IMG/VR virus record: IMGVR_UViG_3300045988_180666
Strand: one strand, 5' to 3'
Origin: a virus
Lineage: Duplodnaviria; Heunggongvirae; Uroviricota; Caudoviricetes
Length of the DNA: 31,872 nt
Under the pieces are notes generated by a model, which saw only the letters and a program-made list of their open reading frames with translations, was not told where the DNA came from and did not search any database. Below, in pieces: positions 17,393-31,188 of this stretch. Numbering within the stretch: position 1 is the first letter of the stretch; every line of letters begins with the position of its first letter. The position numbers and the translations under genes were made by a program.

Positions 17393-17462
17393 TTATCGGC
17401 GGTCAAGCAAGAATGCCAGCCACCTAACTTATATAAGAATCGTACTATCTAAAGAAATCAAA

Positions 17463-24053: not shown

Positions 24054-24085
24054 ATATCTTTGCGATTTTTACGGCGCAAAGATAT
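24054..24085. promoter_or_regulatory. 11-bp perfect inverted repeat ATATCTTTGCG-N10-CGCAAAGATAT abutting the protease start codon. Each arm contains a TATCTTTG -7 box.
   Basis: Read directly from the sequence. The right arm gives a minus-strand -7 box about 30 nt upstream of ATG 24053. The left arm gives a plus-strand copy. Confidence 0.5.
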
Positions 24086-25216: not shown

Positions 25217-25226
25217 GCAAAGATAC
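25217..25226 (-). promoter_or_regulatory. -7 box TATCTTTGCA for the head/packaging operon
   Basis: Plus strand tgcaaagata; the -33 element is non-canonical. Confidence 0.4.
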
Positions 25227-25299
25227 AAAGAAAATTTGAAATAACTAACGATAATCGGTAAAAACTAACTTTTATCAGTAAATTTGGTGTGATATAATT

Positions 25300-25600
25300 T
25301 CGTCCGAAAAGTTTGTATTTTTGTATCGTACAAACAAGGCTCTGTAACTAGCTGATAATCAATACTATTTTTGTGATACAATTTTCTGATACAGAAATTG
25401 TAACTCTTTAGCTTTTGTAACTTGGGGTTTTGTCGAGGTCGAAGACCTGTAGGAGAAGGGGCTTGTTACAAACTTGAAAAACTTTGTAACAGAGTTGTAA
25501 CGCAACTTTGTAAACATCGGCAAGGCGGCTTAACTCCATCTTTTATAATTATTTACCTCTTTTGCCAACATTATGTTACAGAGTTACAAAGGATTTGTAT
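25300..25600. repeat. Iteron array: about 12 copies of TTGTAAC / GTTACAA and TTGTAT variants. Putative replication origin or regulator-binding array.
   Basis: Copies at 25343, 25398, 25415, 25465 (inverted), 25484, 25495, 25508 (TTGTAAA), 25575 and 25584 (inverted). There is also a TTGTA-TCG-TACAA palindrome at 25321-25333. The array lies just downstream of the primase-helicase gene. Confidence 0.5.
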
Positions 25601-25731
25601 AAAATAAAAGAAAGGGGTGTGGGGAAAACGATGGCACGGGGCGTGAAGGAGGATAGGGAAGGCCCATCGAGACACCCAGGACACCCCCATTGGCCAATGG
25701 AGGGGTAGCGAGACGAAACATCGCCCATGGC

Positions 25732-25770
25732 AACGAAAAAAGGGAGCGACGGCCAATGCGCATCGCTCCC
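25732..25770 (-). terminator. Strong rho-independent terminator for the primase operon
   Basis: Stem GGGAGCGA/TCGCTCCC (8 bp) with a 12-nt loop. On the minus strand it is followed by UUUUUUCGUU. Confidence 0.65.
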
Positions 25771-25951
25771 TCGTAACATGGGAAAAGAATTATAAATCAG
25801 CAAAAATCTGCCTATGAAATCAGCCCTCGTCTGCTTGCAAAAATAGTGAAAAATTGCTTGAAAATTTAGCCGAAAATATTTGCATAATTCAGATATTTTT
25901 TGTACCTTTGCACTATAACTTGGGGCTATCTATTCTATTATATATGGATGG

Positions 25952-28906
25952 CTAGAAAGGTTTATCACTATCTTTATCTACCTTGCTCCAGTCAATGGTA
26001 GATTGATATTCACCCCCAGCTGCAGGGACATCAGCCTTGGCAGCTTGTTTATCCTCTTTTTTATCATCACTCTTCTTGCTTCGGAGATAGATCATCTCGA
26101 CAGGGCTGCCGTCTGGGTTAGCTGGATCGCGTCTGATGATGCGGTGCTGGCTGTTGCAGAGATCAGCTGGGTTCAGCTCTTGGATGTATGGACACAGCTC
26201 GACGAAGGCTCTGAGCTTTTTGGTGAAGCTCTGTGTGGTCGCCTTGTTGATGCCTGAGAACTGCTTGAAGTCATTGAACGCACGCTCTCTCACGATAAAT
26301 GTATCGAGTCGCTCGCTCTCTTCTGAGAAGTAGGATGCAGCCCAGTCTTCGAAGTTGACACCCATGTCGGCCTTGAACTTGCGCTTGATGATGTTATCCA
26401 TCGGTGGCATGATCTTGATAGGTTCGCCAGCCAAGGAGAGATAGAAACGACAGCACTGCAGGAAAAAGTTGATGTCAGCATTCCACTCATCCTCAGTGTA
26501 TGTCTTTGAGAAGAGATCTTCGTCGAAGTCATCACGGATGCTTCGGGTCTCTTGGTAATCATTCTCCTCTGTGCGCTGATGGTAATAGTCGGAGAACACC
26601 ATATAGAGCAGTCTCGCCTCTGAGGAAGGGTCGAAGTCTGCCGGCACGTAGTTGGTGGTGAAGGCAATCTTCGGGCTATCCTCGAAAGGAATTGTGAAGC
26701 TCTGGTTGTTCTTTGGGTTGACTGTCATATCTGAAGTAATGTTATCGTAAAATAAACCTGTGTTGAGATAGCGGTCACAGTCATCGAGGAGCAGCATCTG
26801 GGTGTGCTGTGTCACCTGATCGAAGACGTGTGGGTTGTCCATCAGCTTAGGGTTGCGTCCGGAAAGCTTGACTGTTTTCATCAGCAGTGAAAGCGTCTTG
26901 AAGAAGAAACTCTTACCGGAACGGCCGTTGCACTCGTTGTTTTCACCAATCTTGTTGTCCATCGCCATCGGAGCCCAAGCCCTGGATGGTGCCTTGTAAT
27001 GATGGAGCATGTAGCCGAAGGTGAAAATCTTGTTTATCAAGTTCTGCTTTTGCTCTTGTATCTCGTTGTCGGCAAGCCCTTCGCCAGCGATGTCGAAGAG
27101 GTGTGCCTTGTGGTATGCCTCTTTCTCCTCGATGCTCTTGTCCTCAAAAGCATACTCTAGCTCTTTGCGCCAGTAGGTGCGAGAGGCGTTGATGAGATAG
27201 CCGAAGAAGTGGGACTTCACGTTCTTGACCTCGATGTCGAACTTCGGCCTGCCATCCTCGTCGATGGTTCGGGTGATGGAGAACATGTCATCCAACTTCT
27301 TGAAGTTGTGGTTGATGACATTCTCTTGCCAAACATAGTTTTTGAGCGAGCTGCCCTCACGCTGGTACTCGTTTAGTCCATCTTTGGTGACCTCGACGCT
27401 GACACGAGGGAAGAAGAACAACTGCGAGTGGTTGGTGTAGCTGGTGAAGTCTAGCGTAATCTCTTGGAGCGAGTCGAGCGCCGATGCCGACAGCTTTGGC
27501 GTGTTGAGCACCAAGTTAAGGATGTCACGCTTCTCAGCTCTCTCGATGACCCATTGGCGGCAGAACTCACGGATGTCTCTCGTGGTGATGAGCTTGACGA
27601 TGTTGCCCGTGATGCGAACATATTTGGTGATGGTCGAGTTGTCATCGTGCAAGGTATAGAAACCATTGAGACGAAGAAAATTGTAGAGGCACGCCGTGTC
27701 GATGTAGTGGTCCCAGGTGTTAGCCTTTTTGTTGAGCTTGCTCACCCAAAATCGGGCTGGCATCGCCAGTGTCATGAGGTTGCGGAAGTCTTTGCGAGTA
27801 TTGCGCAGCTCCATCCAGTCTCGCAGGTCTTTGCGCCCCTTGCCACGGTTGTCGTGGTAGGTGCGAAGCCAAGAAGGCAACCATATCGTATGGATGTCGA
27901 TGAAGCGCAGGGCAAGCTCTGTGCCCTTGGCGATGCCCGTCTCGTCGATGTCGGGTATATTGTAGAGCACCTCGACATACTTCATAATCTCTCGGTACTC
28001 CTCGTCGCTGAGCTTGTAGGTCTCGGAGTTGAACCATAACGGGTTGTAGCCCATGGAACGGCAGCAGAGACTGTCACGCTCGCCACTGCAGATGAAAGCC
28101 TCGGGAAGTTTCTTCTCCTTGTAAGGCTTGGACTCGTCTGTGTTGGTCTTGTTGTACTCAGCCTCTTCACGGCGGTTGAACTCGTGATAGGCAGCCTTCA
28201 GCTCAGCTAGGCCATTGATGTATTGCTTAGGCTTGATGCCGTCTGGGGTGTAAGAGAATCGCCACTGCTTTTGGTAGTTGAGAGGCTCATATATCTTGTA
28301 GAACTTAACCTCAGGCTTGTCGCCTTCAGCTGGGCGAACCAAGCACTCACGCATAAAGATAGGGTAGTGCTCGTTGCTGTGCTTAATCTTGACCTTGCGG
28401 TCTTTGACGTATCCTATCCACTTGGCGGAATGCCAGTTGAGCGCATCGACGTGCTCTTGCTTGACGTTTGGACCCAGTACCTTCAGTTCATCTTCGGTGA
28501 ACTTCTCGTTCAGCTCGAAAGGTCTGGTACCATCTTTCTCGTTGATGGTGGCATCACGCTCTGTGAACGTAGGCTTGTTGACCTCTTTTTTGAGTTCATC
28601 GCTAACGTTGTATTCGGAAGCCAGTCGCAGGATAGCATCAGGAAAGCGGTCGATGCACTTCTCTCTCATGTAGAGGTCGATAGGTGACTCGGCAGATCCG
28701 TCGCCGCCGAAGTCTGTCACTCGCCAGCAGTCTTTGAACTTTTTGAGACTGCAGGAAGGTGTTTTCTCATTGCGGATGGCAAAGTGCTTTTTAGGCGTGC
28801 CAGTCGTGCAATATTTCTGGATGCATTCTTTTGCGTCCGGGTATAGTGAGATGATGATGTCGAGACCATCATCTGTAGCTTGATAAATTTGTTCTGCTTT
28901 GATCAT
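25952..28906 (-). CDS. Primase-helicase with a P4/D5-family C-terminal NTPase domain (start ATG 28906)
   Basis: Walker A GRSGKS...LLLDDCD in the C-terminal third. The large N-terminal region is primase-like. The track start at 28936 is a TTG; the ATG at 28906 (MIKAEQIYQ) is preferred. Confidence 0.65.
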   Translation of the reverse strand: MIKAEQIYQATDDGLDIIISLYPDAKECIQKYCTTGTPKKHFAIRNEKTPSCSLKKFKDCWRVTDFGGDGSAESPIDLYMREKCIDRFPDAILRLASEYNVSDELKKEVNKPTFTERDATINEKDGTRPFELNEKFTEDELKVLGPNVKQEHVDALNWHSAKWIGYVKDRKVKIKHSNEHYPIFMRECLVRPAEGDKPEVKFYKIYEPLNYQKQWRFSYTPDGIKPKQYINGLAELKAAYHEFNRREEAEYNKTNTDESKPYKEKKLPEAFICSGERDSLCCRSMGYNPLWFNSETYKLSDEEYREIMKYVEVLYNIPDIDETGIAKGTELALRFIDIHTIWLPSWLRTYHDNRGKGRKDLRDWMELRNTRKDFRNLMTLAMPARFWVSKLNKKANTWDHYIDTACLYNFLRLNGFYTLHDDNSTITKYVRITGNIVKLITTRDIREFCRQWVIERAEKRDILNLVLNTPKLSASALDSLQEITLDFTSYTNHSQLFFFPRVSVEVTKDGLNEYQREGSSLKNYVWQENVINHNFKKLDDMFSITRTIDEDGRPKFDIEVKNVKSHFFGYLINASRTYWRKELEYAFEDKSIEEKEAYHKAHLFDIAGEGLADNEIQEQKQNLINKIFTFGYMLHHYKAPSRAWAPMAMDNKIGENNECNGRSGKSFFFKTLSLLMKTVKLSGRNPKLMDNPHVFDQVTQHTQMLLLDDCDRYLNTGLFYDNITSDMTVNPKNNQSFTIPFEDSPKIAFTTNYVPADFDPSSEARLLYMVFSDYYHQRTEENDYQETRSIRDDFDEDLFSKTYTEDEWNADINFFLQCCRFYLSLAGEPIKIMPPMDNIIKRKFKADMGVNFEDWAASYFSEESERLDTFIVRERAFNDFKQFSGINKATTQSFTKKLRAFVELCPYIQELNPADLCNSQHRIIRRDPANPDGSPVEMIYLRSKKSDDKKEDKQAAKADVPAAGGEYQSTIDWSKVDKDSDKPF

Positions 28907-28933
28907 AATTCTTTTCCATTGTAAATTTGCTTG

Positions 28934-28964
28934 CAAAATTATTGCAAAGCGAGTTCAAAACAAA
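28934..28964 (-). promoter_or_regulatory. Canonical Bacteroides promoter: -33 TTTG (28964-28961), 19-nt spacer, -7 TAATTTTG (28941-28934)
   Basis: Read from the sequence. The spacing matches the TTTG / TAnnTTTG consensus. It lies 27 nt upstream of ATG 28906. Confidence 0.5.
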
Positions 28965-29576: not shown

Positions 29577-29788
29577 GATCCATCATTGATAATTTGCTCG
29601 ATGACCTCTCTGTCGATGGCACGCCAAGTATTGGTGCGCATCTTATTGTAGATGGTGTTCTGGCTCATCTCTAGCTTTAGCTGCAGTGTGGCCATGAACT
29701 TGCTTCTCTTTTTGCGTGGTATCTCATTATACCATGCGAGGATGATATTTTCATCATCATTTTTTTGTTTTTTTCTTGCATATTCCAA
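29564..29788 (-). CDS. Cro/excisionase-like small DNA-binding protein
   Basis: 74 aa. The segment MATLQLKLEMSQNTIYNKMRTNTW resembles an HTH. It is divergent from the repressor gene. A TAACTTTG -7 box lies 21 nt upstream. Confidence 0.45.
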   Translation of the reverse strand: MEYARKKQKNDDENIILAWYNEIPRKKRSKFMATLQLKLEMSQNTIYNKMRTNTWRAIDREVIEQIINDGSWEK

Positions 29789-29902
29789 TATTTATTATTA
29801 ATTTTGTTGCAAAGTTAGTAATAAAAATCGGAAAATACTAACGAAAGTAAGTAAAAACACCTACGATAATAGGTTAAATATTATTAATTAAATTAGGTAA
29901 TT
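29789..29902. promoter_or_regulatory. Divergent switch region between the Cro-like and repressor genes, with an 11-mer direct repeat TATTATTAATT at each end
   Basis: Copies at 29793-29803 and 29879-29889. TAACTTTG (minus strand) at 29817-29810. Contains motifs shared with the region at 25244-25269. Confidence 0.5.
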
Positions 29903-30280
29903 ATGTTTAATGGTCAGATAATCAGAAAGTTAATGTCGGATGCTGGCTTAACTAAAAAAGAGTTTGAAAGACGTATGTTCGGTAGTAAATCGACCGACCT
30001 CAACCATTTGGAAAAAGCGAAGAATCTTCGCAGTGACACTCTCGAACGTCTGCGTGATGTGTTGAAGTGCTCTATGGATGACTTCTTTACAGCACCCTCA
30101 TGGGCTGAGAACGGAAAGGGGACAGTCGTAGGCTCTAACAATGTGCTGTCAACAGTAGCCATCGGCAACGAAGTGATGGAAGCCCAATATCTCAAGGAGT
30201 TGCTCTTGGAGAAGGACAAACGCATCAGCACTTTGGAAAATTATATCAAGCTTCTGGAGACTAACTTAAATAAGGACTAA
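29903..30280 (+). CDS. XRE-family HTH transcriptional repressor (CI-like)
   Basis: The N-terminus LTKKEFERRMFGSKSTDLNHLEKAKNLRSDTLERLRDVL is HTH_XRE-like. The C-terminus has a coiled coil. It is divergent from the cro-like gene. Confidence 0.6.
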   Translation: MFNGQIIRKLMSDAGLTKKEFERRMFGSKSTDLNHLEKAKNLRSDTLERLRDVLKCSMDDFFTAPSWAENGKGTVVGSNNVLSTVAIGNEVMEAQYLKELLLEKDKRISTLENYIKLLETNLNKD

Positions 30281-30510
30281 TACGAAACATAATTCGTAAG
30301 ATGAATCCTTATATATAATAAGGTGTATAAAATATATCGTATAATCTCAGCAGTGATATCCAACTCGTTAGTCCTGCCGCCGCAACTAGTTTCGGGTAAG
30401 AAGTTGGTAAACAACATCTTATCCGATTTCTGTTTTTCTATTGGAACTATATCAGAACGAAATACTTTCCATTCCACATTCCTTTGATATTCAATATTTA
30501 ACACTTATTA

Positions 30511-30566
30511 TTTGCGTATATTGAATAAAAGTGCTACTTTTGCACATTGATAATTTATTGTGCAAC
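30511..30566 (+). promoter_or_regulatory. TetR gene promoter and operator: -33 TTTG, -7 TACTTTTG, 26-bp palindrome
   Basis: -33 TTTG at 30511-30514, a 20-nt spacer, then -7 TACTTTTG at 30535-30542. The palindrome TTGCACA-N12-TGTGCAA (30540-30565) overlaps the predicted transcription start. Confidence 0.55.
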
Positions 30567-30591
30567 CAAATCTCGATGGAGGTACTTCGTT

Positions 30592-31188
30592 ATGTCAATA
30601 TCAAAAACTAGACAGAAATTAGTGGATGTCGCTCGACAACTCTTTGCAAAGAACGGAATCGCCAATACAACGATGAATGACATCGCTGTGGCTTCTGGTA
30701 AGGGACGTCGCACGCTTTATACCTATTTTAGTCGTAAGGAGGACGTCTATTACGCAGTGATAGAGTCGGAATTGGAGCGCCTTTCTGACAAACTTGACGA
30801 AGTGGCCGCCAGTAAGATTCGACCTCAAGACAAAATCATCGAATTGATTTATACCCACTTGAGCATGATCAAGGAGACTGTTGTCAGAAATGGAAATCTG
30901 AGAGCTGAGTTCTTCCGCAATATTTGGATGGTGGAAAAGGCTCGCAAGAATTTCGATGAAGACGAGATAGAACTTCTCAGGAAGGTTTATTCCGAGGGCA
31001 AGGCGGACGGCGAGTTTGACATCGATAATGTAGATTTGGTGGCTGACATCACACACTATTGCATCAAAGGTCTCGAAGTTCCGTTTATCTATGGGCGATT
31101 GGGACATGGCTTGAACGTGGAGTCGAGCAAACCGCTGGTTGCCAAGGTTGTCTATGGTGCTTTAGGAAAGTCGGGAATGAAGTTGTAA
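30592..31188 (+). CDS. TetR/AcrR-family transcriptional regulator
   Basis: The N-terminus RQKLVDVARQLFAKNGIANTTMNDIAVASGKGRRTLYTYF is a classic TetR HTH. ATG at 30592. Confidence 0.75.
   Translation: MSISKTRQKLVDVARQLFAKNGIANTTMNDIAVASGKGRRTLYTYFSRKEDVYYAVIESELERLSDKLDEVAASKIRPQDKIIELIYTHLSMIKETVVRNGNLRAEFFRNIWMVEKARKNFDEDEIELLRKVYSEGKADGEFDIDNVDLVADITHYCIKGLEVPFIYGRLGHGLNVESSKPLVAKVVYGALGKSGMKL

Follow-up and report, generated by a model that had tools for sequence, protein, structure and literature searches.

The lysis-lysogeny decision of lambda is governed by the CI/Cro switch, which acts on the tripartite operators OR1-3 and OL1-3, built from 17-bp sites; in its heteroimmune relatives, operators and recognition regions are both changed. 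In mycobacteriophage L5, gp71 binds stoperators, asymmetric 13-bp sites that are scattered over the genome in dozens of copies and act on elongation, and in coliphage 186, the direct targets of CI repression include pB, a distant promoter that gates late functions through the late-gene activator B. The human gut is rich in temperate phages of Prevotella/Segatella and Bacteroides, and the sigma-A promoters of the Bacteroidota are composed of a -33 element, TTTG, and a -7 element, TAnnTTTG. The CI protein of the P2-like phage 186 does not undergo RecA-dependent self-cleavage, is countered by the antirepressor Tum, and has flanking sites, FL and FR (PMC7708051). CI of the lactococcal phage TP901-1 is likewise a small repressor without a cleavage domain; its palindromic operators are OR, OL, and OD, one of which lies beyond a gene (PMC7250872). 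Our literature search found no paper defining the operators of lysis-lysogeny switches in temperate phages of Prevotella/Segatella or Bacteroides, and a 2026 preprint on Bacteroidales prophage repressors treats operators only in its background on lambda.

Here, we analyzed a DNA stretch of 31,872 nucleotides (the window), which is a temperate phage (a prophage-like element) of the Segatella (Prevotella) copri type. Most of its genes are on the minus strand. A candidate repressor gene diverges from an early operon that comprises genes for proteins of 74, 68, and 103 aa and a primase-like gene of 994 aa (25952-28936). This last gene is followed by a noncoding stretch of 740 nt and then by a second promoter with two hypothetical genes behind it. 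Next come a gene for a ClpP-type head maturation protease, which has a further -7 box of its own at 24084, and more genes of the morphogenesis side, with a weak terminase match. The gene order is the same in the cultured temperate Bacteroides phage BT-TP2 (PMC12694917). Together with the context of the HTH gene, this order makes it reasonable to read the 29.8-kb region as a repressor/cro region. Scans of the window with Rfam (at gathering thresholds) and for tRNAs gave no match; thus, the intergenic regions hold no known RNA.

For comparison, we used 62 related elements, 30 from genomes and 32 from viral contigs, with both promoters of each anchored on the -7 box. One close relative, L003 (contig CAVCRI010000336.1), is found in a metagenome-assembled genome labelled Lachnospiraceae, probably because of a binning error rather than a host jump. 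At 30370-30386, the sequence AGTCCTGCCGCCGCAAC is kept in nearly all relatives with enough flanking sequence, with a single substitution in one of them, and the flanking sequences of the relatives diverge directly after it. This sequence is probably the core of the attachment site and the right end of the element, in which case the TetR gene at 30547-31188 would belong to the host flank. The window contains no second copy of AGTCCTGCCGCCGCAAC.

A preliminary description of this DNA had pointed to a 17-mer shared by the repressor/cro region and the region upstream of the second promoter, and had proposed it as an operator motif. The match at 15 of 17 positions is borne out (AATCGGTAAAAACTAAC versus AATCGGAAAATACTAAC, on the same strand), and so are two shared shorter words, ACGATAAT (25248-25255 and 29863-29870) and GTAAAAAC (25258-25265 and 29851-29858). 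As described, one copy lies in the divergent intergenic region, and the two loci are at opposite sides of the replication module. This intergenic region separates the Cro/C1-type HTH gene from a gene with a Cro-like predicted fold, and the two promoters are 4.6 kb apart. A search of the window for this one 17-mer returns just these two copies where 0.05 would be expected, although this test was chosen post hoc. As a fairer test, we asked whether the 754-nt and the 114-nt intergenic regions have some 17-mer in common at 15 or more positions, which is the case in 10 of 300 mononucleotide shuffles (about 3%). Likewise, the upstream regions of the two promoters agree in register at 28 of 60 positions, and comparisons with other AT-rich promoters reach up to 31 of 60 (25225 versus 13722). 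The window by itself is therefore suggestive, with a match weakly above chance, and the evidential weight comes from the related elements.

The 17-mer is not a generic repeat, an outcome that would have spoken against the proposal. Its degenerate form occurs in 18 stretches among 2.9 million viral contigs, four of which lie on contigs already among our relatives, and both copies are found together on one contig only, a near-identical relative. As a conserved unit, however, the 17-mer had to be rejected, since even with up to three mismatches allowed it is absent at the orthologous positions in the 30 genome-derived relatives. What had been seen as an operator-like motif does mark repressor-type cis elements at both loci, but the 17-mer itself is not the operator unit: it consists of half of one 14-bp site, a T-rich spacer, and half of the next site, and, measured from the respective -7 boxes, its two copies are offset by one site.

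Comparison with the relatives supports the operator idea in this other format, in which both promoters carry arrays of putative 14-bp operators (Table 1). On the minus strand, the sites have the form C-Y-N-A-N6-T-W-A-G, and two or three of them precede each -7 box; the window's entire wider clade shares this layout at both promoters. Their centers are 20 to 22 bp apart, about two helical turns, with spacers of 6 to 8 nt, and all of them (X1 to X3, Xa and Xb, and the weak Xc) fall within -68 to -13 relative to the -7 boxes. As in a lambda-type array, multiple mutually similar, two-fold-symmetric sites overlap promoter elements, and a second array with the same recognition sequence is located at a distant promoter of the same phage. 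The alternative unit TTAG-N6/7/8-CTAA, in whose frame the motif was first described, was discarded, since the spacer length in it is not fixed (6 to 8 nt), while every site and lineage has the 4-N6-4 arrangement unchanged. Xc aligns with X3 of the early array in relatives of the L001 type (CTCAATTTTTATTTG versus CTAATTTTTATTCG) and, on the basis of this alignment, is a possible third site of the second array.

Table 1. Positions of genes, promoter elements, and putative operator sites in the window
Feature	Position	Strand	Sequence	Remarks
Candidate repressor gene, 125 aa	29903-30280	+		Cro/C1 HTH, Pfam HTH_26
Cro-like gene, 74 aa	29564-29788	-		First in early operon; predicted fold
Hypothetical gene, 194 aa	24613-25197	-		First behind second promoter
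Hypothetical gene, 139 aa	24114-24533	-		Next after 194-aa gene
Early -7 box	29810-29817	-	TAACTTTG	TAnnTTTG; drives 74-, 68-, and 103-aa genes and primase-like gene
Putative site X3	29818-29831	-	CCGATTTTTATTAC	Abuts early -7 box; from weight matrix and relatives
Putative site X2	29838-29851	-	CTTACTTTCGTTAG	TTAG half ends 20 nt upstream of -7 box (-33 position)
Putative site X1	29860-29873	-	CCTATTATCGTAGG	Palindromic outer bases CCTA/TAGG
Second-promoter -7 box	25218-25225	-	TATCTTTG	20 nt upstream of ATG of 194-aa gene
Putative site Xb	25245-25258	-	CCGATTATCGTTAG	TTAG half ends 19 nt upstream of -7 box (-33 position)
Putative site Xa	25265-25278	-	CTGATAAAAGTTAG	6 nt upstream of Xb
Possible site Xc	25226-25240	-	TTCAAATTTTCTTTG	Weakest site; between -33 position and -7 box
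Inverted -7 box	29799-29806	+	TAATTTTG	3 nt from early -7 box
Possible extra operator-like site	30261-30274		CTAACTTAAATAAG	3' end of repressor gene; weight-matrix score 13-14
17-mer, copy 1	25253-25269	-		Xb left half CCGATT, spacer TTTTTA, Xa right half GTTAG
17-mer, copy 2	29826-29842	-		X3 left half CCGATT, spacer TATTTT, X2 right half GTTAG

In the window, the sites are degenerate, X2 and Xa alone being within one mismatch of CTAA-N6-TTAG. Still, a weight matrix trained without the window's clade places Xb first, Xa second, and X2 third among the distinct sites of the 31.9-kb window, all three within its top five scores, although the rank of Xa is not independent because its exact 14-mer entered the training set through relatives. 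Only two further sites in the window score highly, the one at the end of the repressor gene and another at 17424-17437. In some relatives, the palindromes are complete. X3 is a perfect CTAA-N6-TTAG in L036, L039, and L057, and in L001 and L053 (14 to 15 kb each) this perfect form occurs exactly four times, always inside the two promoter arrays; 0.25 occurrences would be expected by chance, and none of 200 shuffles reaches four. All five sites keep the 4-N6-4 format and the 6- to 8-nt spacings in 34 related elements. A chance resemblance between two AT-rich intergenic regions would be in keeping with the 3% of shuffles that reach a match of at least 15 of 17, and also with the count of the loose site pattern, which is not enriched across the window (13 found, 10.5 expected). 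Yet orthologous positions retain the sites, and the 34 relatives as well as independent lineages repeat the pattern, so that coincidence is hardly credible.

A Bacteroidota sigma-A promoter is expected to have TAnnTTTG about 20 to 100 nt upstream of the start codon, with a T-rich -33 element another 19 to 21 nt upstream; a sigma-70 promoter scan was disregarded because it does not apply to Bacteroidota. The -7 boxes of both predicted promoters are present and conserved, and their -33 position holds TTAG, which is part of an operator site, rather than TTTG. At the second promoter, the T-rich spacer and the flanking half-sites (GTTAG-T-run-C-Y-N-A) persist even in clades whose early regions are unrelated. 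Given the TTAG at -33 and this deeply conserved spacer, part of the similarity may be promoter or UP-like sequence. Taken to its end, this argument would make the whole similarity a matter of host-polymerase promoter architecture, with a -33-like TTAG and UP-like or bent T-tracts at helical-repeat spacing, and would leave the 25.2-kb site without an operator role. The position of TTAG, exactly at -33 in both promoters, the persistence of the second-promoter sequence beyond the early regions, and the unexceptional similarity of the two promoters within the window all fit such an account. However, the other -7-box promoters of the window (28941, 24084, 15150, 13722, 12489, and 7126) are without the sites, and several of them show the usual TTTG at -33; the sole exception, an inverted box at 25903-25910, has a similar upstream region that does not vary by repressor type. 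Nor would host-polymerase sequence be expected to undergo the matched palindrome switches of L010, L012, and L028 described below, and the four perfect palindromes confined to the arrays of L001 and L053 are far beyond chance. We consider promoter architecture as the full explanation improbable.

The sites change in concert with the repressor type. Elements whose repressor is 65% identical to that of the window have ATTAG/CTAAT at all sites of both promoters, versus GTTAG in the window; in detail, the base before TTAG is G at all four window sites and A at all four sites of the L001 type. The differences between the repressors of the two types cluster in residues 27 to 45, the HTH recognition region. 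Early and late sites agree at 9.0 and 11.5 of 14 positions within types, compared with 6.8 and 7.8 across types, a contrast whose permutation P value is inflated by the relatedness of the elements. More distant lineages have palindromes of their own. Those of L012 differ from the window's and are common to both promoters (ATCCTAATAAAGTAGGAT/ATCCTTATAAACAAGGAT), as are those of L028 (ATCCTGACACATAAGGAT/ACCCTTAAACATAAGGAT), and L010 likewise has its own palindrome at both promoters. In all three, the distances from palindrome to -7 box at the two promoters agree to within 1 nt, and the elements encode their own divergent repressor homologs (144 to 151 aa) and Cro-like proteins.

Across 11 representative elements, early and late regions of the same lineage agree in register at 21.0 of 36 positions, and those of different lineages at 16.1 of 36. 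The clade of L004 to L008, L013, and L026 has no convincing motif shared by the early and late regions beyond TTGGAT at the -33 position. What the sequences show directly is the arrays, where they lie with respect to the promoters, how they are conserved, and how they vary among lineages. The concerted change suggests that the sites follow a lineage-specific trans factor, which would not be expected of elements read by the host polymerase, and it stems from essentially one deep split and three distant lineages, that is, from few independent events.

The candidate for this factor is the 125-aa protein. It matches Pfam HTH_26 (PF13443) over residues 7 to 63 (E = 7e-7; 29.8 bits, with a cut-off of 22) and PHROG 3, "transcriptional repressor" (E = 5.9e-5), and its gene has the layout of an immunity repressor gene, divergent from the small Cro-like gene that heads the early operon. 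According to the alignment of the types, its C terminus is a short, heptad-rich helical segment that is nearly invariant. Pfam returned no Peptidase_S24 match in this protein; the S24 domain for C-terminal oligomerization and RecA-stimulated autocleavage that defines the lambda family is thus missing. The Cro-like protein has a predicted fold of the lambda CI/Cro HTH type. In its gene, the A run at 29760-29766 has seven residues in the window and eight in the closest relatives (L031 to L033). With seven, the usual ATG (29779-29781) no longer leads into the reading frame, which is open only from a TTG at 29788. A sequencing error in the homopolymer could account for this difference, as could a disabling mutation or phase variation of the run.

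The arrays might also be genuine and the second promoter be regulated by another protein, either the Cro-like protein of 72/74 aa or an activator encoded by the element. Both promoters have TTAG in place of the TTTG consensus at -33 and may depend on a factor, and sites centered near -39 and -60 would suit activation of class I/II type at such poor -33 elements. As for the Cro-like protein, it has the predicted HTH fold and diverges faster between types than the repressor does (52 to 58% versus 65 to 83% identity). Nevertheless, X3 and Xc fill the spacer between -33 and -7, which is a position for repression, a divergent CI-like gene beside the array is the classical immunity layout, and the HTH differences of the CI-like protein track the operator type. 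We regard a regulator of the second promoter other than the CI-like protein as unlikely.

The early promoter has a further feature. The inverted -7 box next to it forms the arrangement TAnnTTTG-N3/4-CAAAnnTA. All lineages examined retain this arrangement at the early promoter; the second promoter lacks it. This box is a candidate promoter of the repressor gene. If it serves as such, the array would lie within a repressor leader of about 90 nt, which implies negative autoregulation; no site for positive autoregulation is evident. Moreover, if both boxes are promoters, their separation of 3 nt means that two polymerases cannot bind simultaneously.

Taken together, these results make it reasonably probable, in our judgment, that the arrays are bound cooperatively by dimers of the 125-aa HTH protein, which silence both the early/replication operon and the operon with which the morphogenesis side begins. 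The binding protein, the sign of regulation, the cooperativity, and any looping are what we infer. In a lysogen, dimers of this Cro/C1-type protein would occupy both arrays. Since the sites cover the -33 position and the spacer between -33 and -7, the bound protein would occlude RNA polymerase at both promoters; occupancy of the early array would shut off the early/replication operon, and the second operon, 4.6 kb downstream, would be silenced in the same way. The Cro-like protein would probably compete for the early array. Because the repressor has no autocleavage domain, induction would presumably need an antirepressor or a similar route. There is indeed a predicted promoter downstream of the 25.2-kb sites, as the preliminary description held, but its label as a head/packaging or late promoter goes too far, since it first drives two hypothetical genes and the protease gene is preceded by the separate -7 box at 24084.

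A more elaborate and doubtful version would have the two arrays and a third cluster, past the repressor gene, looped by repressor oligomers, with the inverted -7 boxes acting as a minimal Bacteroidota switch. Within the loops would lie the repressor gene together with the entire early/replication module and its iteron-rich, origin-like region described below. In such a switch, the lytic and lysogenic polymerases would be physically exclusive at -7 boxes that are inverted and 3 to 4 bp apart. The inversion of the -7 boxes is conserved across all lineages of the phage family.

Further sequences of possible regulatory interest lie outside the two arrays. The relatives have one or two operator-like sites at the same position as the extra site in the 3' end of the repressor gene; the L001 type has two, 20 bp apart. 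Between the end of this gene and the att-like core, there is an AT-rich palindrome, CCTTATATATAATAAGG, at 30308-30324, and the relatives keep lineage-specific palindromes in the same interval. The stretch 30261-30330 may hold a third operator cluster or arm sites for a recombinase. The site at 17424-17437 (CTAACTTATATAAG) reaches the scores of the promoter sites on either strand, is found shortly after the stop codon of a terminase-like open reading frame, and has no -7 box nearby; it may be due to chance or be an isolated repressor site. About 65 nt upstream of the second -7 box, the minus-strand element CTTTTCGGACGAAATTATATCAC (25288-25310) is conserved far deeper than its surroundings and is recognizable in L004 to L008, L013, L015, and L026.

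The noncoding stretch after the primase-like gene (25300-25950) has several features of its own. Six of the 10 TTGTAAC/GTTACAA heptamers of the window, in both orientations, fall within 25398-25589, and the expectation for the whole window is 2.3. The same heptamer is repeated after the primase-like gene in the relatives and in Bacteroides phage BT-TP2, and the clusters look like the iterons of a replication origin. Closer to the primase-like gene, the second promoter region recurs as an inverted copy at 25865-25918 (54 nt, 70% complementary). The -7 box of this copy (TACCTTTG, 25903-25910, plus strand) points antisense into the 3' end of the primase-like gene. This copy is almost invariant among L001 to L003 and contains CCGA-N6-TTGC. 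We did not count it as a type-specific operator, because it is identical in elements with different repressor types; it may serve as an antisense promoter or as another regulatory site. A minus-strand -7 box at 25838-25845 is followed about 100 nt later by a G+C-rich hairpin and a T run (25741-25771), a combination that suggests a short noncoding transcript. The stretch from box to hairpin (25741-25845) has no Rfam match, and the box is inside a 45-nt segment that is absent from L001 to L003.

The analysis yields a testable operator consensus, CTAA-N6-TTAG, with lineage variants, mapped onto promoters of the Bacteroidota -33/-7 type. It also leads to the prediction that the early operon and another one, 4.6 kb away, are both silenced by a single small repressor that has no cleavage domain. 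Such sites could be used to predict immunity groups among these prophages, to obtain inducible or derepressed phage variants, and to supply repressor/operator parts for Bacteroidota genetics.

Among known systems, lambda offers the most familiar parallel. Here, too, an HTH repressor gene diverges from a cro-like gene, partly symmetric operators about two helical turns apart overlap the promoter, a second array lies kilobases away, and operators and recognition regions are altered among relatives. The OL/OR-style pair suggested by the preliminary description is thus apt as topology, but the correspondence ends there, as both regulated promoters face the same direction and the repressor lacks a LexA/S24-type domain. 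Behind the second promoter lies the morphogenesis side, not an early leftward operon, the sites measure 14 bp (4-N6-4) instead of 17 bp, and the promoters are of the Bacteroidota -33/-7 type. In place of an S24/LexA-like domain, the 125-aa repressor ends in a short helical C terminus, and the -7 boxes are inverted 3 nt apart. The element falls outside the lambda CI family, which it resembles in function and topology.

Coliphage 186 shares with this element a repressor without self-cleavage, distal sites, and a distant second promoter, whereas its proteins and operators are unrelated in sequence, and its pR and pL promoters are convergent. With TP901-1, the element has in common separated palindromic operators at divergent promoters, to which the possible third cluster past the repressor gene may be compared. 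The TP901-1 sites, however, are within 1 kb and serve the switch promoters only, while the second array here is 4.6 kb off, at another operon. Finally, as in L5, one repressor would act at sites outside the switch and silence downstream operons, but in place of scattered asymmetric stoperators the element has two, possibly three, palindromic arrays close to promoters.
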